64,000 nucleotides of DNA. Source: an uncultured virus (IMG/VR IMGVR_UViG_3300008107_000170). Lineage: Duplodnaviria > Heunggongvirae > Uroviricota > Caudoviricetes. Where the stretch lies: the IMG/VR virus record IMGVR_UViG_3300008107_000170; one strand, 5' to 3'. Positions within the stretch are counted from its first letter, which is position 1. Each line of letters opens with the position of its first letter. Below are positions 1-21,986 of the stretch, one piece after another. The notes below the pieces were generated by a model. That model made no database searches. It worked only from the letters and a program-made list of their open reading frames with translations, and was not told the origin of the DNA. Made by a program: the position numbers and the translations under genes.

Positions 1-5
1 CAAAC

Positions 6-85
6 TTGTTGGGTTGGTTGCCTAGTTGCCTAAAAGCCCTTATAGCGACTGTCGTCGCTAGGCAACTAGGCAACCAACCCAGCAA
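6..85. repeat. Long inverted repeat element A
   Basis: TTGTTGGGTTGGTTGCCTAGTTGCCTA (6-32) pairs with TAGGCAACTAGGCAACCAACCCAGCAA (59-85); inner hairpin TAGCGAC/GTCGCTA. Confidence 0.9.
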
Positions 86-86
86 A

Positions 87-136
87 ACGCAAAAACGCCC
101 CCTAGCAAGCGCTAGGAGGCGTTTTGGCGGGGTTTT
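87..136 (-). terminator. Intrinsic terminator after the DUF932 gene
   Basis: AAAACGCC-CCTAGC...GCTAGG-AGGCGTTTT hairpin flanked by A and T tracts next to the stop codon at 135. Confidence 0.65.
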
Positions 137-1133
137 AGACCAGTGCTAGTGTTGCCGAGAGAATTCGCGCTTTCTCGGCGTTTACAACAGGGTCAAAGCC
201 ACTTGCGGCGGCTACGATAGACTCGCTACCCTTGCGCCCAGTGCGGTAGTAATCAATGCGCTCAGTTAGGGCGTTGAGAGCGCCCCACGCTGTGCCAGTG
301 ATGTTCGCATTGGTAGCGCCATTCTGGTAGAGGTCATAAATCGTGTCTATCTTGTCGTTCCAAACAGTCAGGGCAGACTTGGCAGACCCAACTTCTGGCT
401 CGGCGTAAATAGACTTGACTAACTTGTCGAACTGAATGTCGGTCAAGGTAGTTTCGAACAGGCTTTTCGCCATTGCTTCGAAATTATCCATGTGGGCAAA
501 AGTTAGACCGAGAGTTTCACGGGCTAACTGAATTTTGCCGTCAACGGTGTTGCTGTGGCGAATTTTAAACGATTGCTTAGAACCGTTTAGCGCCATGTTG
601 AGAGTGTTCTGGCACACCACCCGAACAGGTGTGATGTTCGCCTGAACCGCTGTCGAACCGTCGTGGCTAGTGTGAACAAGCAGGTATGAAACCGTCTTGT
701 CGTTAGCGCCCTCTGGGTCTAGCACGAATTCTTTTGGAATTGTGAGAGAACCGAAAACAACCTTGCCATTCTTGATAGAGCCAGCGCTTTCCCAGTCTGC
801 GCCACCGTCAAGCAGAGCGTCGCCGAAATCGAACAGGGTTTCATTCTGGACAACATTGTAGCGGTTGCCGACAATCGCAAGAACATCAGTTCCCTTGTCG
901 AATGGGTTCGTGCGAATTACCATTTGCTGTTGCGTGCTACTGCGGTAGCCCTCTGGAACAGACAATTCCTCTAAGCGAACATTCCAATCGTTGAGGTGTG
1001 CGAGTTCCAACATCTCGGCGGTTGTTATGTGCTGTTCCTTGTCGAACACTTGACCCAACTTGTGCCAAGCAGGTTCGCCCCTAAGAGCGAAAGCGGTGTT
1101 GCCTTGTTCATCTTGTTCTAATGCGTGTGCCAT
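135..1133 (-). CDS. DUF932 / TIGR03299-type phage/plasmid protein
   Basis: Motifs AWHKLG, YNVVQN..LFDF, SHDGS, TPVRVVCQNTL, IRH, GTAWGALNALTE; ATG at 1133 follows a purine-rich RBS. Confidence 0.85.
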   Translation of the reverse strand: MAHALEQDEQGNTAFALRGEPAWHKLGQVFDKEQHITTAEMLELAHLNDWNVRLEELSVPEGYRSSTQQQMVIRTNPFDKGTDVLAIVGNRYNVVQNETLFDFGDALLDGGADWESAGSIKNGKVVFGSLTIPKEFVLDPEGANDKTVSYLLVHTSHDGSTAVQANITPVRVVCQNTLNMALNGSKQSFKIRHSNTVDGKIQLARETLGLTFAHMDNFEAMAKSLFETTLTDIQFDKLVKSIYAEPEVGSAKSALTVWNDKIDTIYDLYQNGATNANITGTAWGALNALTERIDYYRTGRKGSESIVAAASGFDPVVNAEKARILSATLALV

Positions 1134-1197
1134 GTTATCTCTTTTCTGTAAGCGAGAGGGCATCTCTCGATTAGCGTCATCTGCGCTAACAAGTAAA

Positions 1198-1275
1198 ACT
1201 CTACTAATAGACTTGCTAAAACCGACACTTGTAGATGAACAGCAGGTAAACAGTTCTGTTTACCTCTCGTTTACC
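1198..1275 (-). promoter_or_regulatory. Early-type promoter module 1
   Basis: Minus strand AAGTGTCGGTT, TAGAGT -10 box 20 nt from GTGTC, upstream GATGAAC-N4-GGTAAAC-N6-GTTTACC-N4-GTTTACC. Confidence 0.75.
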
Positions 1276-1282
1276 AAACTTG

Positions 1283-1367
1283 CCAACCCAGCAAAAATAA
1301 GCCGATAAACCTAACCGCGAAGCGGTTGGTTTAGAAGGGCTTTTACGGCTTATTTTTGCTGGGTTGG
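1283..1367. repeat. Long inverted repeat element B
   Basis: CCAACCCAGCAAAAATAAGCCG / CGGCTTATTTTTGCTGGGTTGG 22-bp arms; inner GCGAAGC hairpin and AAGGGCTTTTA linker. Confidence 0.9.
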
Positions 1368-1475
1368 GCTTGCCCCAAAAATGAAAAGCCCCACAGCAGA
1401 CAAGAGAAAGGTCTGCTGTGGGGCTTAGGGGAAACCTAGCCCAGAGCATAAGGGGGGGCGCTCTGGGCTAGGGGT

Positions 1476-1682
1476 CTATCGGTTTCGGCGCTCTGCCTGA
1501 ACCTGCTCTACCAACTTCTGCATTACTAACTGCCCTTTGGCTGTGTCGTATTGCTTGTTTAGTGTCGCTTTGATTTTGTCGTTGCGGAACTGATTGCGTA
1601 AATCGTTTAGGCGCTCGTCGCTGTAATCACGAAACATACCTAGCGCCCATTGGTCGAACGCTTGTGCGATTGTCTGGGTCAT
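1476..1682 (-). CDS. Hypothetical protein
   Basis: 68-aa ORF coupled (TAATG) to the upstream gene and followed by two GC hairpins. Confidence 0.75.
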   Translation of the reverse strand: MTQTIAQAFDQWALGMFRDYSDERLNDLRNQFRNDKIKATLNKQYDTAKGQLVMQKLVEQVQAERRNR

Positions 1683-1960
1683 TAGTTGCTCCTTAGATAG
1701 ATGTTTCCAATTGTAGCAACCAAGTCGTCTTTCGCCGATTGGTCTAGTTCTGGCGTGTCGTGAACAACACCGATAATGTGTCCAGCGGCACGCTGTCGCC
1801 CGAACATAAAGGTCAGGTTATCGTTTTCGATAATAGCCCTGCTTAGTTCTTCCTGTTCTTCGCCAGAGTTGCCTGTTTCCTTTTCGGCTTTGACGATTGC
1901 CCAGACTGCGTTGTAGATGTCGTCTCGGGCGCTGTCCATTTGTTCTTGTGTGATAAGCAT
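1682..1960 (-). CDS. Hypothetical protein
   Basis: 92-aa ORF with AAAGGA RBS. Confidence 0.75.
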   Translation of the reverse strand: MLITQEQMDSARDDIYNAVWAIVKAEKETGNSGEEQEELSRAIIENDNLTFMFGRQRAAGHIIGVVHDTPELDQSAKDDLVATIGNIYLRSN

Positions 1961-2015
1961 TGTAATCCTTTGGTTAGGCTAGGGGGCAAGTTGCCCTGCC
2001 CCCTAGCAAGTTTGT

Positions 2016-2165
2016 TTAGAGTTGGTCTAGCGCTCGCATACGGCGCTCGTGTTGCTCGTCAATTTTCTCGGCGCACTCGGCACAGATGTCTAGTTTCTCA
2101 AACTTGACTAGCGGTTCGAAAACATTGACTTCTAGGCACAAATCGCATTTAGGCGTGTCGGTCAT
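2016..2165 (-). CDS. Small zinc-finger-like protein (49 aa, not in ORF track)
   Basis: Translated by hand: MTDTPKCDLCLEVNVFEPLVKFEKLDICAECAEKIDEQHERRMRALDQL; two CxxC; TAATG coupling. Confidence 0.7.
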   Translation of the reverse strand: MTDTPKCDLCLEVNVFEPLVKFEKLDICAECAEKIDEQHERRMRALDQL

Positions 2166-2458
2166 TACTCGCCCGCCTTTACGATTTTGTAGGTGTCGCC
2201 TTTGGCGTTGATTGTTAGCACGCTGTCCAGCGGAATTGAGCGAAACGCTTGCTTTGCCAAATCCCAGACGGGAATTAGTTTCTTTTCCCCGAAATCGTAA
2301 GCGGCTTCACCACCAGCCAACTTGCTCTGGTAGTTGGTTGTTGCGGTCATCTTGCGAACTTCGCCTGTGGTTCTCTTGACGAATTCGATAGTAAAGAACT
2401 TGCCATTTAGGTCGTATAGAAACTGCCCAACTTCATCGGCTTTTAGTGTCTTTTCCAT
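2165..2458 (-). CDS. SH3-fold protein (DUF2693/WYL_2-like)
   Basis: FFTIEFVKRTTGEVRKM ... VWDLAKQAFRSIPLD pattern; ATG 2458 lies downstream of promoter module 2. Confidence 0.7.
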   Translation of the reverse strand: MEKTLKADEVGQFLYDLNGKFFTIEFVKRTTGEVRKMTATTNYQSKLAGGEAAYDFGEKKLIPVWDLAKQAFRSIPLDSVLTINAKGDTYKIVKAGE

Positions 2459-2512
2459 TTGTTGCCCCTGCTCTCTTATTCTCTTTATCAAGCCTGATTG
2501 CCTGATACCTAA

Positions 2513-2568
2513 ACTCTATGCCCAACCAGCGACAAAACCGACACTTGTAAGGTGAACACTAGGTAAAC
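2513..2568 (-). promoter_or_regulatory. Early-type promoter module 2
   Basis: AAGTGTCGGTT, TAGAGT 21 nt from GTGTC, GGTGAAC-N4-GGTAAAC. Confidence 0.75.
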
Positions 2569-2580
2569 GCTAGCCTAACA

Positions 2581-2651
2581 CCAACCCAACAAACAGCCAA
2601 CAGCCGAAAGAGCATAGAAAAAGCGCGGCTGTTGGCTGTTTGTTGGGTTGG
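2581..2651. repeat. Long inverted repeat element C
   Basis: Perfect 26-bp arms CCAACCCAACAAACAGCCAACAGCCG / CGGCTGTTGGCTGTTTGTTGGGTTGG with a 19-nt loop. Confidence 0.92.
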
Positions 2652-2690
2652 GACACGCCCGAGCTTTTACACTCGGGCGTGTCGCAAGTC

Positions 2691-2891
2691 CTAGTCCAGT
2701 TTGTTATCCTGCTCAACCAAGTGGCCAAGGATACTAAACTTGCCCTTGATTCTGGCCGGTATGTCGATTTCCTCAACATCGCCCTCAACTTCTGAGGCCA
2801 GCACCTTCCATTCTTGGTCGGTCAGTTCGCGGCCAATTACTCGCTCAAAGTCGCCGCGAGTCCATACGATTTCGATTCTGTTTTCTAGCAC
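2691..2891 (-). CDS. Hypothetical protein
   Basis: 66 aa, GTG start with GAAAGGA RBS. Confidence 0.7.
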   Translation of the reverse strand: MLENRIEIVWTRGDFERVIGRELTDQEWKVLASEVEGDVEEIDIPARIKGKFSILGHLVEQDNKLD

Positions 2892-2955
2892 GGTAAATCC
2901 TTTCAGGTTTTGGGGGTGGCAGTTTTGGGAAGGTCTGCCAACTTCATCGGGGGAA

Positions 2956-3327
2956 CTATCTGGCTACTACTGCACCAGTTTTGATACCGCTAATAAAGGT
3001 GTTTAGCGTTTCGGCTACTACTTCCAACTGCTCTAAGGTCATCTTAGTAGATAGCAAGTCATAACTTCTGTAATTGCTATCCCCGAACACCCCGTTTAGA
3101 TAGGTGAAAGTAGTTTCTTCAATTTGGAACGAGTGCTGCCCATCGCTATCCGCAAAAATCTTGACGGCGAGGTCTCGGTCAGCGTGAGGTGCTCTTAGTT
3201 TTACATCGCCCTCATCGTCTAGCGGTTCGCTAGAAAAAGTGGTAGAGTGCTCACCCTTGACCCAAGTGTTGCGGTCGCCACAAATCTCAACTTCACTTGT
3301 GGTTTTGATAACTACTGCTTTCGACAT
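2956..3327 (-). CDS. Hypothetical protein
   Basis: 123 aa, directly downstream of promoter module 3. Confidence 0.75.
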   Translation of the reverse strand: MSKAVVIKTTSEVEICGDRNTWVKGEHSTTFSSEPLDDEGDVKLRAPHADRDLAVKIFADSDGQHSFQIEETTFTYLNGVFGDSNYRSYDLLSTKMTLEQLEVVAETLNTFISGIKTGAVVAR

Positions 3328-3376
3328 AATGTCTCTTTCTCTTTTCTAAATCGTAGCCCCGATGGCTACAAGTAAA

Positions 3377-3454
3377 ACAATACTATTAGCCCCGACAAAA
3401 CCGACACTTCTAGGTAAACACTAAGTAAACAATTTTGTTTACCTGCCGTTCACC
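3377..3454 (-). promoter_or_regulatory. Early-type promoter module 3
   Basis: AAGTGTCGGTT, TATTGT 20 nt from GTGTC, GGTAAAC-N4-AGTAAAC-N6-GTTTACC-N4-GTTCACC. Confidence 0.75.
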
Positions 3455-3538
3455 AACCCAACAACAAAGTAAACAACAGGTAAACAGCTATGAGGCAAGC
3501 CGGCTGTTTACCTGTTGTTTACTTTGTTGTTGGGTTGG
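3453..3538. repeat. Long inverted repeat element D
   Basis: Perfect 36-bp arms CCAACCCAACAACAAAGTAAACAACAGGTAAACAGC and its reverse complement; 14-nt loop. Confidence 0.92.
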
Positions 3539-3583
3539 GAGGCTCCCCGCCGGCCAGAGGGGGACTGACCGGCGGGGAAGTTT

Positions 3584-3820
3584 CTAGGCCTGAATTACTC
3601 GGACCGGACCTTCCCAGTCGTGAATCGGCTTGTGAGCCCATTCAAGCGCTTCGTCTTCGGTGGCGAAGTATGGTGCCCATTGGACACGCAACCAACCGCC
3701 AATGTTGACTTCGAGAGTGTATCGAATGCTTGGCTCGCATTCGTGGCCTTCCATAGTTTCAGTTGCTTCAGCGAACATAAGTCCGCAACCTGAGCATTCT
3801 TGGTATCCAATTTGTGGCAC
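3584..3820 (-). CDS. Hypothetical protein with N-terminal CxxC...HxC zinc-finger-like motif
   Basis: ECSGCGLMF...GHEC; GTG start with AGAAGGG RBS. Confidence 0.65.
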   Translation of the reverse strand: MPQIGYQECSGCGLMFAEATETMEGHECEPSIRYTLEVNIGGWLRVQWAPYFATEDEALEWAHKPIHDWEGPVRVIQA

Positions 3821-3887
3821 GGTGTTTCCCTTCTAGTTGTGTGAGTGAGTCAGTTTAACAACTTGACTCAGGTTGTCTAGGGGGGAC

Positions 3888-4328
3888 CTATTCGAACGCT
3901 TGCCTGTCTTCATCAGTAGCAACCCTGATAAAGAACGGAGCAGTGCCTGTGTTCTCATCGTGAGAGTAGCGAGTTGCGCTTAGTTGCCCGAATTTGTCGA
4001 TTCGGAATTCTAAGCGAAAGTCGCCGTTTAGCGATAAGGCGCTGAGTATCTTCTCAGCCTTGATTAGCGCCCTGAAGCCTGTGTGAGTCCAACGCTGAGA
4101 GTCGCAACTAATGTAAACATCAGTTTCTTTATCAGCGTCATTATCGGCTAGCCAGTCTTGGAGATAACTATCCAAGTCATCGGCTTGCCAGTGCCAGCAT
4201 TCGCCTTCTCGACAGTCATCGGCGGGTATCTCATTGCCTTTCTCATCAAGTAAGCCTTCGCCGTCATCATCAACGGCTGAGCAAAGGCAGTCAGTAGTAA
4301 TGCTTGCGCTACTGATTATTTCTTCCAT
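3888..4328 (-). CDS. Hypothetical acidic protein
   Basis: ATG 4328 (MEEII) with AGGGAG RBS; the longer track start overlaps promoter module 4. Confidence 0.75.
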   Translation of the reverse strand: MEEIISSASITTDCLCSAVDDDGEGLLDEKGNEIPADDCREGECWHWQADDLDSYLQDWLADNDADKETDVYISCDSQRWTHTGFRALIKAEKILSALSLNGDFRLEFRIDKFGQLSATRYSHDENTGTAPFFIRVATDEDRQAFE

Positions 4329-4375
4329 GTTGTATCTCCCTAGTTTCTTATCAAGCCCGTTTGCTTGATGTATAA

Positions 4376-4454
4376 AGACTAGGGTATCTCTCTCAATAAC
4401 CGACACTTCTAGGTAAACTCTCGGTTAACAAATGCCGTTATCAAACTGTTATCA
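4376..4454 (-). promoter_or_regulatory. Early-type promoter module 4
   Basis: AAGTGTCGGTT, TAGTCT 20 nt from GTGTC, GGTAAAC-N4-GGTTAAC then GTTATCA-N4-GTTATCA. Confidence 0.75.
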
Positions 4455-4460
4455 ACACGC

Positions 4461-4580
4461 CGCCAACCCAACAACTACTAGGGAAACGAAGTTTCCCAGT
4501 AGTTGTACAATTTGCGAAGCAAATTGGCAAATCGGCAATAGCAAGCGAAGCATAGCTATTGCCGATTTGCTGGGTTGGCG
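4461..4580. repeat. Branched inverted repeat element E (four-way junction)
   Basis: CGCCAACCCA/TGGGTTGGCG closing stem enclosing three hairpins, each with CGAAG in the loop. Confidence 0.85.
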
Positions 4581-4679
4581 CGACACGCCCGGGCGTACGA
4601 CACGCCCGGGAATTTGTTCATCTAAAGTTTACCTAGGCGACACGCCCGGGCGGTTGGGGGGAACCTGCCCGGGCGTGTC
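4581..4679. repeat. CGACACGCCCGGG repeats (three direct, one partial inverted)
   Basis: Copies at 4581, 4598 and 4638; inverted GCCCGGGCGTGTC ending 4679; related GACACGCCCGAG hairpin at 2652-2683. Confidence 0.85.
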
Positions 4680-4694
4680 TATCTAGGGGTCTGG

Positions 4695-4907
4695 CTAGTC
4701 CATAAACCAACTAACCAGTTTGGCAATCTGCTTGGCGAATACCAAGCAGAGAACAGTCATCACGGCGATAGTCCAGAGAACATCAGCGGGTGGTATGTTC
4801 GGTTGGTCTGCCAAAGTTGCTAGCAGACCATAGGCACTCGCATAAATTGCGAGAACGATTGGTGCGGTGATAATTCCAAAGCCTAGACGGCGAATAAAGA
4901 ACTTCAT
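4695..4907 (-). CDS. Small membrane protein (two predicted TM helices)
   Basis: Two hydrophobic segments in 70 aa. Confidence 0.7.
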   Translation of the reverse strand: MKFFIRRLGFGIITAPIVLAIYASAYGLLATLADQPNIPPADVLWTIAVMTVLCLVFAKQIAKLVSWFMD

Positions 4908-5047
4908 TAGTTCGCCACCTTTTCACGCTGAACATTGGCACAGGCGTAGCAGATTGTGCCAATTCGGTCTAAGCACTCCAAGAGCAGAGCGTCAGTGCCA
5001 GAGTGAACGATGTTTTCAGTAGTGCCACAGATAGAACAGATGTTCAT
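4907..5047 (-). CDS. Small zinc-finger-like protein (46 aa, not in ORF track)
   Basis: MNICSICGTTENIVHSGTDALLLECLDRIGTICYACANVQREKVAN; AGGAG RBS; TAATG coupling to the next gene. Confidence 0.7.
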   Translation of the reverse strand: MNICSICGTTENIVHSGTDALLLECLDRIGTICYACANVQREKVAN

Positions 5048-5106
5048 AATTATTACTCCTAGATTAGTGAGAGAGCGGGGGATTGCTCCCCCGCCCGCTC
5101 GGTTGA

Positions 5107-5310
5107 TTATTCGGTTGCGGTGCTAGTTGCTTTGACCATAGCCAAAGCGTCCTGAGTAGCGTGAACTACGCCAGTCTTGTAAGCCAAGTCCCAAACTTCT
5201 CGCAGGCTTACTACTTGATTAGGCGTGAGGTCGTGGCTATCAGCGTATGACTTTACCAAGTCATACATCTCAAAGAACGCTACTTCACTGCGGTTATCTT
5301 TTTGCTCCAT
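5107..5310 (-). CDS. Hypothetical protein
   Basis: 67 aa with AGGGG RBS, downstream of promoter module 5. Confidence 0.7.
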   Translation of the reverse strand: MEQKDNRSEVAFFEMYDLVKSYADSHDLTPNQVVSLREVWDLAYKTGVVHATQDALAMVKATSTATE

Positions 5311-5388
5311 AATGCTCTATCCCCTAAGATAGTTTTGCTAAGTTGTCTTGCTTAGCCAAGTTATCAGGCTTGCTTGCCTGATGTATAA

Positions 5389-5454
5389 AGACTATGCCCT
5401 AAGTGTAAAAAACCGACACTTCGTAGGTTAACAATAGGTAAACTCTCGGTGAAC
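5389..5454 (-). promoter_or_regulatory. Early-type promoter module 5
   Basis: AAGTGTCGGTT, TAGTCT 20 nt from GTGTC, GGTTAAC-N4-GGTAAAC-N4-GGTGAAC. Confidence 0.75.
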
Positions 5455-5572
5455 GGCTAGGGGGGGTAGGGTTAGCCGACTGCCCCAGCCAGCCCCCCGC
5501 CAGGTGTCAGAAACGACCAACGACCATTTTGGCTAGGCAGTAGCCTAAACGGCGGCGTGGTAGACTGGGCCT

Positions 5573-5776
5573 ATGATTATACAACTTAATCCGCCTTTGC
5601 CATTGGACACTCCGAAGGGCTCGGCCTTAGCGCACTTCTTGATTGATATGGGTCCTGAGCACAACATTCAGTGGGTTTGCTTCCAGGATGAAACGGGCGA
5701 GTGCTGGACCTGGCAGAACAGCGACGTTAGGGCCCAGAAGAACGTTACGATGCATCGCTACCCAGCTGGCAAGTAG
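5573..5776 (+). CDS. Hypothetical protein, probably leaderless
   Basis: 67 aa; TAGACT -10 box 6 nt before ATG and no SD. Confidence 0.7.
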   Translation: MIIQLNPPLPLDTPKGSALAHFLIDMGPEHNIQWVCFQDETGECWTWQNSDVRAQKNVTMHRYPAGK

Positions 5777-5957
5777 ATAACGGTTTGGTAACAATTGCTG
5801 CGGCATGCAAATACTGCTTAATATTTAATTAACATAATCAAATATTTAGTTGTAGTAGCGGTGTCTGCTGCGCCCCCAATATGCAGGTTTCTTTAAGTAA
5901 ACAAATGTTGTCAAGTATTCCCAGACTATGTCCTTGTTTTAATCTATAGTAGGAACT

Positions 5958-6281
5958 ATGGAACCTATAACCCCACAGATGAAGCGAAAAGCTTTCGAAG
6001 AGAAACGAGCTAACGAGCGTAAAGCGCTCTATGCCGTTGGACATATCCTTGACGACGCCGATGAAGCCGTTAAAAGAGACCCTGATAACAAAGCGGCTAT
6101 CTACGAAAGGTCTAAGGCAGTTCGCCGCGAGAACCAGCGAGAGATTGACACTGCTTACGCAGTCAAGTCTGGGGCTACCATGGCTGAACTTGCTGAAAAG
6201 GGCAAGGACATCGAGGTAAGCGGAGATGCGCTGCGCCGGGCCAAAACTGGTCAGAAGCCTAAGATTCAGACCACTCTTTAG
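5958..6281 (+). CDS. Hypothetical protein (paralog of 6539-6877)
   Basis: Shares REIDTA.AV..G.TMA.L.E...EVSGDALRRAK with the downstream paralog. Confidence 0.8.
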   Translation: MEPITPQMKRKAFEEKRANERKALYAVGHILDDADEAVKRDPDNKAAIYERSKAVRRENQREIDTAYAVKSGATMAELAEKGKDIEVSGDALRRAKTGQKPKIQTTL

Positions 6282-6290
6282 GAAAGACTA

Positions 6291-6464
6291 ATGGCGGGCC
6301 GCGTCCACGAGTTCCAACTGGGTGTATTTCCACCAAAAATGCCCATTTTTGGAAGCAGAAGAATCAATGATAGAATCTTTACTGGCCCTAGGGGCTCAGT
6401 AATGCGTTACGGTGCATCACCTGCCGCATCTGATGTCGTAAAGAAGCCCTATAATGTGTCTTAA
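6291..6464 (+). CDS. Small basic hypothetical protein (57 aa, not in ORF track)
   Basis: MAGRVHEFQLGVFPPKMP...; AGGAAAG RBS. Confidence 0.5.
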   Translation: MAGRVHEFQLGVFPPKMPIFGSRRINDRIFTGPRGSVMRYGASPAASDVVKKPYNVS

Positions 6465-7397: not shown

Positions 7398-7576
7398 TGG
7401 AACCGAAAGACCCTCAGTTTGATAAGCCTAAGAGTCACTTTGAAGAAGTGTTTGGCATGCTTTACGGAGAAGACACCCTAGCCCGTATGAAGAAGAGCGA
7501 GGCTGAAAAGAAAGCGGCCGAGCCTGACGAGCAGGATGATGACCGCGACCCTAAGCACGACCACTGGGACGCGTAG
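7397..7576 (+). CDS. Small acidic protein, MEPKDPQF family
   Basis: ATG 7397 (TAATG coupling); paralog of the next ORF. Confidence 0.75.
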   Translation: MEPKDPQFDKPKSHFEEVFGMLYGEDTLARMKKSEAEKKAAEPDEQDDDRDPKHDHWDA

Positions 7577-20921: not shown

Positions 20922-21986
20922 ATGGCAACTCTCACGGAACTTGTGGAAAAGGTAAGGACTGAGTTAAACGACCAGCCTAAACAGTTCACCAAGTCATTTA
21001 CCGGTGACGGTTCTACCAAGGACTTTACTTTGGGGTATAAGCCCCTAGACCTTACTACCCTTATGGTCACTGTGAATGGTACAGTACAAGCCAACCCAAC
21101 AAATTACACCGCCGAGGCTAACCACGGCGTAATCCACTTCACCTCTGCCCCAGCTAACAACGCTGTAATTAGGATAACTGGAAGCGTTTTCAGGTACTTT
21201 TCAGAAGCGGACTTAGAATACTTTGTCAATACTGCCGTAGGACAGCACCTACTTAACCGCACAGACCGGTTTGGCACGCAAATGACAATAAGCATGTTGC
21301 CAGAGGTCGAGGCCTACCCCGTCACGATTCTGTCTACTATTGAGGCTCTATATGCCCTGGCAACAGACGCTTCGTTTGATATAGATATCCATGCTCCTGA
21401 TGGTGTGACTATCCCGCGTGCTCAGCGCTACAGCCAGCTTATGAATCTAATAGGCCAGCGACAGGAACAGTACCGCAACATCTGCTCTGCTCTAAACATT
21501 GGTCTATGGAAGATTGAAATAGGAGTGCTACGCCGCGTGAGCCGTACCACAAATAAACTTGTTCCAATCTACATGACTCAAGAAATTGATGATTCTCGCA
21601 GGCCGGAACGAGTCTACATTGAGAACAACCTTAATGGCCGTGTTCCTGCGCCTAGCACGGTCGGTATCTATGACCTAATCGTAGAGCAGGGAGACACTTT
21701 CTCGGTAACGCTAGACTTCCCAGACGACACTAACTTTAGTGATTTGGTATTTAAGGCGCAAATTCGTACCTACCCTGGCTCACCTACTCTTTGGGCTACT
21801 ATGACTGTCACTGTCAACAACCCTACGTTAAAGAAACTTACTGTATCCATGACTCCGGAGCAGACTACAAACCTTCCTGTTCGCTGTGCGTGGGACATCC
21901 AGGCAACTTCTATATCAAACCCAGACTTTGTTAGAACCTACCTCAGGGGCCAGGTATTCGTTAACAGGCAGGTGACCCTAGACTAA
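20922..21986 (+). CDS. Head-tail adaptor / neck-type structural protein
   Basis: N-terminal MATLTELVEKVRTELND, FTGDG repeat, C-terminal IVEQGDTF...YLRG domain. Confidence 0.65.
   Translation: MATLTELVEKVRTELNDQPKQFTKSFTGDGSTKDFTLGYKPLDLTTLMVTVNGTVQANPTNYTAEANHGVIHFTSAPANNAVIRITGSVFRYFSEADLEYFVNTAVGQHLLNRTDRFGTQMTISMLPEVEAYPVTILSTIEALYALATDASFDIDIHAPDGVTIPRAQRYSQLMNLIGQRQEQYRNICSALNIGLWKIEIGVLRRVSRTTNKLVPIYMTQEIDDSRRPERVYIENNLNGRVPAPSTVGIYDLIVEQGDTFSVTLDFPDDTNFSDLVFKAQIRTYPGSPTLWATMTVTVNNPTLKKLTVSMTPEQTTNLPVRCAWDIQATSISNPDFVRTYLRGQVFVNRQVTLD

Follow-up and report, generated by a model that had tools for sequence, protein, structure and literature searches.

Why should a phage carry a long palindrome between its neighbouring early genes, and is it the DNA or a transcript that has to fold? 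The question arises from a stretch of 64,000 nt (called the window below, meaning the whole stretch at its full length) of an uncultured tailed virus, IMG/VR record IMGVR_UViG_3300008107_000170. The first 5.4 kb of the window carry small minus-strand genes and contain five long inverted repeats, elements A to E. An initial annotation of this DNA had proposed that selection acts on an extruded cruciform or single-stranded DNA (ssDNA) structure, and had named injection pausing, supercoiling-sensitive promoter control, protein decoys and recombination as possible roles. This interpretation is partly supported. Comparison with related phages shows a pairing constraint that, to judge from the pattern of substitutions, acts on DNA and starts about 7 bp inside the element ends. 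As to what the pairing serves, we tentatively favour a role of the elements as boundaries or insulators between transcription units, with recombination as a by-product.

The palindromes and the constraint on their pairing

All five elements end in the 12-mer CCAACCCARCAA and its complement. This 12-bp box consists of two CCAAC pentamers, and its inverted copies bracket a fast-drifting core. Two box arrangements occur, type A and type B, and the elements themselves have no strand. Element A (6..85) is of type A (TTGTTGGGTTGG ... CCAACCCAGCAA), with arms at 6-32 and 59-85 (27 nt, 96%), a variable stem of 15 bp, and a centre made of TAAAAGCCCTTATA and the mini-hairpin GCGAC-TGTC-GTCGC. The other four are of type B. 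In element B (1283..1367; CCAACCCAGCAA ... TTGCTGGGTTGG) the arms at 1283-1309 and 1341-1367 (27 nt, 93%) accompany an inner hairpin with GCGAAGC at 1317-1323 and the word AAGGGCTTTTA at 1335-1345. The arms match completely in element C (2581..2651; 2581-2606 and 2626-2651, 26 nt, 100%), around a centre of 19 nt, and in element D (3453..3538; 3453-3488 and 3503-3538, 36 nt, 100%), around a centre of 14 nt; the arms of D contain two GTAAACA words resembling the operator repeats described below. Element E (4461..4580; box to box 4463..4578) has a type B base stem with arms at 4461-4474 and 4567-4580, and three inner hairpins with C-GAA-G triloops at 4487-4491, 4515-4519 and 4546-4550. The word TAAAAGCCCTT is found at 31-41 in element A and its complement at 1335-1345 in element B.

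These structures are far beyond chance. Allowing one mismatch, CCAACCCARCAA has 15 matches in 64 kb where 0.64 are expected, a number reached in none of 100 shuffles, and ten exact matches are the five element pairs. Two lone copies, at 21091 and 43349, and three one-mismatch matches were considered as further boxes; they lie in coding sequence and look like chance (A/C-rich tail-fibre codons). When folded as ssDNA, all five elements give z-scores of -9.8 to -14.3 on both strands, and none of 200 shuffles folds as well. The predicted fold of element E is a base stem with three hairpins, that is, a four-way junction. The inventory drawn up in the initial annotation (five palindromes, CGAAG in three loops of E, GCGAAGC in B, TAAAAGCCCTT common to A and B, and the four-way junction) is borne out. 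The elements are not artefacts of a single assembly, since independent contigs from other studies, from four runs, span B, C and E with 0-1 differences, E being spanned by contigs of four runs. Element D, with 36-nt arms longer than the word size, is unspanned in those contigs, but two other IMG/VR contigs have it in identical form.

Relatives of the elements were sought by pattern scans and by a protein-anchored search in IMG/VR and metagenomes. This yielded 82 distinct elements of at least 60 nt, 75 of them with flanks of at least 80 nt; after 12 instances at 8 loci had been dropped as chance-like or as members of another family, 63 distinct elements were analysed. Contigs of related freshwater phages thus contribute no fewer than 63 members to the family. 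Type A (TTGYTRGGTTGG ... CCAACCYARCAA) accounts for 48 of them and type B, with the order reversed, for 15, a ratio biased by the metagenome scan, which used the type A pattern only. The swapped arms of element A, which the initial annotation had pointed out, are real but no oddity: theirs is the commoner type among the collected relatives, given a scan with the swapped-order pattern only. In 185,579 reference genomes the element was found in one 2.9-kb contig only. The variable stem is 13-25 bp long, and the centre usually consists of an A/T-rich word (consensus AGCTGTTTT) beside a small GC hairpin, often with a GNA triloop.

The stems are where the constraint is most evident. Across stem columns 13-22 of the 48 type A elements there is not one one-sided change, against 7-32 double changes per pair, and a single column may hold up to four Watson-Crick pair types. 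The covariation score of these elements is 0.533, compared with 0.144 in shuffles (none of 500 reaches the observed value) and at most 0.131 with slid partners; 96.7% of their cells are paired, compared with 74.8% in shuffles. Homologues with compensatory changes, whose absence would have spoken against the structural proposal of the initial annotation, are therefore at hand. Its description of the inner stems as unrelated yet paired holds for the strict pairing, but the stems have a loose AGCC repeat about 8 nt apart in common, with the tendencies WWGCCTWWWWGCCTA in type A and AAAGCCAACAAGCCA in type B. Within one genome, any two of eight stems differ at no fewer than 5 of 15 positions.

Such pairing might be selected in RNA. 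The elements lie directly downstream of terminators, their long perfect stems would give strong RNA hairpins, and the GC hairpins upstream of C, D and E have no U-tract, so the palindromes could be back-up bidirectional terminators, RNase III sites or 3'-end stabilisers that come into play upon terminator read-through. The neighbouring terminators provide an internal control: at each distinct junction, the 80 nt on the terminator side were searched for their best hairpin, which gave 50 hairpins. In the 63 elements, the 756 cells of the variable stems comprise 749 Watson-Crick pairs, 1 G·T, 1 A·C and 5 others, and the stems are ungapped. The 706 cells of the 50 terminator hairpins comprise 673 Watson-Crick pairs, 26 G·U on the sense strand, 1 A·C (which is G·U on the antisense strand) and 6 others. 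The share of G·T differs between palindromes and terminators with Fisher p = 8e-8, and the strand asymmetry of the terminators, 26:1, has p = 4e-7. Counting G·U over the entire minimum-free-energy folds did not clearly separate flanks from palindromes, and the best-hairpin count was used instead. By this measure the terminators evolve as sense-strand RNA hairpins and the palindromes a few bases off do not; terminators bear the RNA signature and palindromes lack it, which argues for selection on self-pairing of DNA and not on an RNA hairpin. Neither the sense-strand G·U tolerance nor the U-tract after the stem that mark an intrinsic terminator is found in the palindromes. Their boxes are conserved in sequence, and the conserved centre motif shows no strand preference. 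A search of the elements against Rfam gave 14 matches at E<=1, none at the gathering threshold (the best, a mir-30 hairpin, scored 46.8 against 50.2). We consider a function at the RNA level quite unlikely.

The orientation of the centre points the same way. Relative to transcription, the centre motif is on the minus strand in 13 type A elements and on the plus strand in 10, with 2 ties, and in type B on the plus strand in 4 and on the minus strand in 2, element orientation being assigned by flank folding energy with at least two instances mis-assigned. At one pair of orthologous elements (L017:3590 and L157:2269), with identical stems and a collinear terminator flank 95% identical, the centre is inverted, as read from short-read assemblies of palindromes at which fold-back contigs exist. 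Two further apparent inversions were discarded, since L101:4232 and L128 had been oriented wrongly. Strict covariation of the stems, no tolerance of G·T of the kind seen in terminators, and a centre free in its orientation together uphold the earlier proposal of selection on DNA structure.

The cores drift while their complementarity is kept. In a collinear relative about 78% identical, the orthologue of element A (the latter lying at 4354 in the record G001) has one change in the stem and one in the mini-hairpin, both compensated. At two other type A elements of that relative the boxes and 25-60 nt of flank are identical, including terminators and parts of promoter flanks, and the stems differ at no fewer than 5 positions, an indel included, with every difference compensated. 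Compensated drift beside fixed flanks suggests that the stem drifts at something like the neutral rate under preserved complementarity.

Where pairing begins can be read from the boxes. In both types the variable box positions are 3, 7 and 9, counted from the CC end. In type B these are 3, 7 and 9 bp from the open end; among 14 unbranched elements, position 3 is mismatched in 4, while at positions 7 and 9 all changes are double (6, against 0 single ones). In type A, positions 9 and 7 are 4 and 6 bp from the open end, and there the two copies vary independently: the pairs at 4 bp are TA 30, TG 15 and CA 3, and those at 6 bp are GC 23, AC 11, AU 8 and GU 6. Further inside the type A box a single change was seen, and it is compensated. 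The box copies thus covary only where they are at least 7 bp from the open end, and pairing is therefore needed from about 7 bp inside, whichever way the box points. This pattern fits a real stem whose outermost turn is open or bound by protein; it is at odds with a pair of separate duplex binding sites spaced arbitrarily.

Junctions, operators and the phage

On the transcribed (minus) strand each junction has the following order: gene stop, one or two GC-rich hairpins, the palindrome, two or three GGTAAAC/GGTGAAC repeats, a conserved module, a 5'-leader hairpin and the start codon. Each element thus lies directly past the terminator of one unit and 25-55 bp ahead of the promoter of the next. 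The window has exactly one element per junction and none elsewhere in its 64 kb; the count per genome is at least eight or nine, all within the early array. In the relative G005, the far end of the array has a lone box right after the last terminator and no palindrome. The first promoter module of the leftward array in the window (5390..5455, minus strand) has operator repeats and no palindrome upstream. These two array ends indicate that the elements belong between units.

The module (AAGTGTCGGTTTT ... TAG(A/T)NT, with TAnnnT as the -10) occurs five times. We call it a promoter by its position and its repetition, because a scan with the sigma-70 consensus did not detect the modules, and no canonical -35 was found. 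Besides the first, operator repeats with a module are found, all on the minus strand, at 1198..1282 (GGTAAAC repeats and the inferred promoter of the DUF932 unit, AAGTGTCGGTTTT ... TAGAGT), and, as repeats of the module, at 2513..2580 downstream of element C, at 3380..3452 downstream of D and at 4376..4462 downstream of E. The hairpins on the other side of the elements are likewise on the minus strand. The intrinsic terminator of the DUF932 unit (92..125) has a U-tract that continues into the box of element A. Two GC hairpins (1386..1476) close the unit upstream of B, the second (1386-1426) followed by a U-tract. A GC hairpin without U-tract (2648..2687) abuts element C, another (3544..3578) lies ahead of D in the sense of transcription, and repeated GACACGCCCGGGC hairpins (4582..4679) lie ahead of E. 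At type A junctions in general the terminator U-tract abuts the box (GGGGCTTT followed directly by TTGCTGGGTTGG on the sense strand), so most transcripts should end ahead of the palindrome. The elements are largely outside the mRNAs, as had been supposed from their place upstream of promoter modules: they come after the terminators and before the modules.

Several further features of the junctions were seen. The word GACACGCCCGGGC is present in four copies, in both orientations, at 4582-4679, where it can form alternative hairpins between the first unit and element E, and it also flanks element C (2653-2686). Operator repeats vary by lineage (GGTAAAC/GGTGAAC here, GRTAACG in G002 and L061, CACAGG in G006), while the box is unchanged; boxes are retained in lineages whose operators changed from GGTAAAC to GRTAACG or CACAGG. 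Lineage-specific operators of this kind look like co-evolution with a phage-specific regulator. In one pair (L018 and L119) only the operator stretch is replaced between an otherwise common element and downstream gene. Type B elements adjoin the divergent control region (5430-5960, between the leftward early array and the rightward genes), and type A elements are placed further out. This control region has G/C runs, and its word GCAGTGTCTGCTGCGCC is also present in G002. In box-less distant relatives, inverted copies of GTGAGAGATACATAG flank early promoters, 40-70 nt apart and with a non-palindromic interior (L077:6533-6632 and 7452-7559; L046:1423-1497 and 1790-1868; L055:659-879); this is a different architecture. 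Finally, one candidate locus with five apparent elements, L174, was dropped: its contig is AT-rich and unrelated, and what it carries is a 20-bp palindrome repeated in tandem. About 20 copies of this palindrome, TTGTTAGGCYRGCCTAACAA, lie at about 88 nt spacing with two alternating spacers and no genes (L174:200-1961); with its similar half-site, the array resembles a centromere- or origin-like series of tandem protein-binding sites.

The window belongs to a tailed phage with terminase, portal, baseplate wedge, DnaB-like helicase, DnaG-like primase, SNF2 helicase, family-A polymerase and RecA; its genome is roughly 85-95 kb. The nearest matches of the terminase, at 53%, are the Streptomyces phages BRock and LuckySocke; genes matching the DUF932 protein (135-1163, minus strand) lie in the terminal repeats of further Streptomyces phages; and G005, a relative that is 97% complete, encodes WhiB. 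These three observations point to an actinobacterial host, probably a freshwater actinobacterium. The phage is widespread: its DNA was found in sequencing runs of 16 studies of freshwater and lake samples from 2017-2025, with no RNA run among those listed. The early array encodes DUF932, DpnD/PcfM-like, DUF1281_C-like, MoxR-type AAA and VWA proteins (in the window and in G005 78074-84688, which is L187), a gene set that we take to be typical of the leading regions of conjugative plasmids. A megablast search of window positions 1-6000 against phage records gave no match. In BRock, one of the cultured relatives, the corresponding region contains a tRNA array; another, Peebs, has a similar leftward early array, with DUF932 in the terminal repeat, in 14 kb of which 6 unrelated inverted repeats and no member of the palindrome family were found. 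To the right of the divergent control region, an open reading frame (ORF) of 57 aa (6291-6464, plus strand) without a protein family match is present at 4 of 4 box-bearing loci and at none of 13 box-less relatives. Because the box-bearing phages form one clade, this co-distribution is only a lead.

Exchange of units and cores at the junctions

The initial annotation had suggested comparing breakpoints of gene content among relatives, and these do fall at or beside the elements. The near-identical record G001, which reaches 4.3 kb further left than the window, reads F2-[A]-178 aa gene-[A]-DUF932, and three relatives read F2-[A]-DUF932; the extra piece is a whole promoter-gene-terminator-palindrome unit between two common genes. 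In another pair, the homologous stretch takes in DUF932, the terminator and the complete element and ends at the outer edge of the promoter-side box, past which the unit and its operator type are different. Three pairs have the entire linker of terminator, palindrome and promoter in common, but not the upstream gene. Two phages share one element at 95% identity although the 40-nt flanks on either side of it agree at only 55%, and in a collinear relative the core of element B is replaced outright beside a terminator flank 93% identical. Such mosaic cases are few (2, 2 and 3 among 1233 same-type pairs at the thresholds used). These cases show that junctions, and in some instances only the cores, have evolved separately from their surroundings. 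BLAST breakpoints between relatives about 70% identical are set by gene conservation and were uninformative.

Some apparent rearrangements were rejected. The read joint '2569 -> 1' does not represent a cassette rearrangement: the window starts 5 nt left of element A, and a contig that continues into the next promoter module had been placed on the paralogous module 2534-2569. The joint '85 -> 2569, opposite strands' in run X15 comes from a fold-back contig. Another such contig, L130 (1-400), consists of the left flank, the element and the reverse complement of the left flank. Fold-back contigs were seen in two data sets, each time at a different element; either they arose as artefacts of assembly, or they indicate that the centre occurs in both orientations side by side.

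Are the palindromes, then, dedicated recombination sites? The folded palindromes would be substrates of a structure- or site-specific enzyme and the boxes crossover points, with units or cores passing between co-infecting phages, following the logic of integron attC sites, which are imperfect palindromes of variable length at every gene cassette boundary and have the end consensus RYYYAAC/GTTRRRY. The whole-unit difference in G001, the homology that stops exactly at the box edge, the element and core whose histories differ from those of their flanks, and the one inverted centre all favour this possibility. The A variant of the box also holds ACCCAAC/GTTGGGT, which agrees with the attC consensus when read in type B order, though not in type A, and the G variant (ACCCAGC) departs from it. 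On the other side, no tyrosine recombinase (PF00589), serine recombinase or Y1 transposase (PF01797) was found in 4 records, one of them 97% complete, and no HUH or recombinase family among 69 ORFs of the window and 43 further ORFs of G005. Extrahelical bases, by which attC strands are marked, are missing from the perfect stems, and each unit carries its own promoter. Other breakpoints lie between gene and terminator, outside the boxes, and the small number of mosaic cases also speaks against a dedicated system. That pairing is under strong purifying selection suggests, moreover, that each infection profits from it, and speaks less for evolvability. Dedicated recombination sites are, in our estimation, unlikely, and we treat exchange at the elements as a consequence, not as the selected function.

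The same enzyme searches bear on two other possibilities. One is that the elements are signals for replication or nicking, that is, ssDNA priming or helicase-loading sites, or programmed nick sites. A phage with a DnaB-like helicase, a DnaG-like primase, PolA and RecA would have the machinery for it, and GNA triloop mini-hairpins stand beside a conserved unpaired motif. In run X18 there is a contig that spans exactly 2645-3459, with a transposase adapter on both ends; the adapter junctions at 1361, 2645 and 3459 fall at the same bond of the box, CCAACCC^AACAA, and a fourth is at 2594. All of them come from one run, and these adapter ends probably reflect a preference of the tagmentation enzyme for a recurring word. 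Origins would hardly be expected in at least eight or nine copies per genome, every one within the early array, the motif is oriented at random with respect to a fixed direction of fork or transcription, and no HUH nickase was found in the 4 records or among the ORFs of G005. We regard such a signal as very unlikely.

The other possibility is that the palindromes are selfish, functionless units at a box-flanked target, like miniature inverted-repeat transposable elements (MITEs) or repetitive extragenic palindromic (REP) sequences, or that their perfection is owed purely to templated repair. The terminal inverted 12-bp boxes, the cores with a history other than that of the flanks, and the loose arm repeats that suggest slippage could all be seen in this light. 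But spreading would give near-identical copies, and the cores within a genome are all distinct, eight elements differing as stated above. The confinement to one element per junction, and to a single 2.9-kb contig among the reference genomes, is also unlike a spreading unit, as is the lack of a transposase in the 4 records, and the elements persist across lineages with changed operator type. Of all the explanations weighed here we give this one the least credence.

A boundary model and its relation to known systems

According to the reading that we tentatively favour, the elements would be boundaries in a leftward array of early gene units of the host-takeover type. The box, a sequence-constrained stretch of 12 bp, is most likely a protein recognition site, located at or beside a four-way junction. 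The element would act as a pair of extruded DNA hairpins, a cruciform: its A/T tract would melt, its mini-hairpin would nucleate folding, and extrusion would be driven by the negative supercoiling behind the strong downstream promoter. A cruciform is the only form that is locally unaltered by inversion of the centre, and so it fits the orientation data. It may mark each promoter-gene-terminator unit and insulate it from the next. Control of the promoter by supercoiling, one of the roles named at the outset, may be part of such an arrangement. With boxes and neighbouring modules repeated from junction to junction, and palindromes prone to breakage, the same elements would also be the places at which units and palindrome cores are swapped, turned round, acquired or lost.

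Several points weigh against the boundary model. Extrusion, protein binding and insulation are predictions, no protein binding the box was identified, and the promoters are taken from the repeated modules that the sigma-70 scan had missed. Linear phage DNA needs topological constraint for cruciforms to form, and positive supercoils from the upstream unit would oppose extrusion. The two box arrangements, and their sorting along the array, are left unaccounted for, and the mis-assigned element orientations mentioned above also count here. Theoretically, templated repair from arm to arm could maintain perfect palindromes in the absence of structural selection; the stable box mismatches near the ends argue against blanket homogenisation by repair.

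A bolder version of the idea, which we hold to be doubtful, would make the elements an integron-like system without integrase in lytic actinophages, with structure-selected hairpins or cruciforms, anchored by the 12-bp box, as the working joints of an early cassette array. A box- or junction-specific protein, or phage machinery of the RecA type acting at extruded or broken palindromes, would swap, invert and import units and cores between co-infecting phages.

Either way, the elements concern genes of general interest. Early host-takeover regions hold the fastest-changing genes of phages, many of them directed against host defence, and the insulation and exchange of such genes are known only in outline, through the promoter early stem-loop (PeSL) elements of T4-type phages. 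The junctions described here contain, besides the terminator, a distinct second element whose evolution shows selection on DNA self-pairing, and the terminators next to it serve as an internal control that follows the RNA pattern. The question of a programmed role for cruciforms or DNA hairpins in phage early regions thereby becomes testable, the element being small enough for plasmids. If the boxes bind a protein, that protein would offer a handle on early-gene control or cassette exchange in phages of freshwater Actinobacteria, which are abundant and hard to culture. A literature search, which did not cover supplements, returned no description matching such elements.

Comparison with known systems helps to place them. 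The initial annotation had drawn a parallel with the hairpin promoters of phage N4, whose virion RNA polymerase, an injected enzyme of about 3,500 aa, uses hairpins with stems of 5-7 bp at a fixed place before the start. A 3-nt loop with a purine in its centre, extrusion from supercoiled DNA and action early in infection would be common to both. The parallel fails in other respects: the stems here are 21-36 bp long, the mini-hairpins point either way, the units have TAnnnT modules of their own, and the largest ORF in the 97% complete G005 has 791 aa, so that no giant polymerase of the N4 type was found there.

Stoperators of phage L5 and the conserved inverted repeats of phiC31 are short protein sites repeated between the genes of actinophages. 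They are simple duplex sites in temperate phages with a known repressor, unlike the boxes here, which bracket a structure-selected palindrome in a phage where no repressor or integrase was seen. REP sequences and the bacterial interspersed mosaic elements (BIMEs) of enterobacterial chromosomes are palindromic units that follow transcription units at their 3' ends; binding of gyrase or other proteins and an influence on supercoiling and on mRNA ends have been proposed for them. REPs are short, conserved in sequence, spread over the whole chromosome and linked to REP-associated tyrosine transposases (RAYTs); the elements here have unique cores, occupy one region of a phage and come without a Y1 transposase, and the near-identical spread copies plus transposase that characterise REPs and MITEs were not found.

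Integron attC sites resemble the elements more closely in having conserved ends and an interior conserved only as DNA foldability. Besides the missing integrase (PF00589 in 0 of 4 records) and extrahelical bases, the elements differ from attC in their two box arrangements, in their lytic phage context, and in that the cassettes carry promoters and terminators. A cruciform whose state governs nearby transcription has been described in Vibrio parahaemolyticus, where the state of an intergenic cruciform is set by the sequence-specific protein HlyU (bioRxiv 10.1101/2022.03.07.483294). Unlike the elements here, it is a single host locus, and the portion of that report available to us describes no repeated family, covarying stems or cassette context.

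The closest known system appears to be the PeSLs, with attC comparable by logic only. In the variable region of T4-type phages, small early genes of unknown function each have a promoter and a stem-loop terminator, and the repeated composite junctions are sites of gene insertion, deletion and replacement between close relatives (Arbiol et al. 2010, PMC2839356; Comeau et al. 2014, PMC4122927; both accessible to us in part). Recombination between neighbouring PeSL junctions gives mini-circles; the one joint here that runs backwards, '2569 -> 1', is an edge effect of the window. The phage studied here is not of the T4 type, given its terminase (53% to Streptomyces phages), the WhiB gene of its relative and modules without a canonical -35. 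Nothing like the palindrome appears in the accessible parts of the PeSL descriptions (PMC2839356, PMC4122927). It is an addition of 70-120 bp, with invariant 12-bp boxes and covariation of the DNA type, separate from the terminator of the RNA type. In other respects, as far as those parts of the PeSL papers go, the two systems correspond. Both have an early promoter and a stem-loop terminator between small early ORFs (five modules and GC hairpins of the RNA type in the present case), in neither is a dedicated recombinase known, and in both the insertions, deletions and replacements of ORFs between relatives are bounded by the junctions, consistent with recombination between repeated regulatory linkers.

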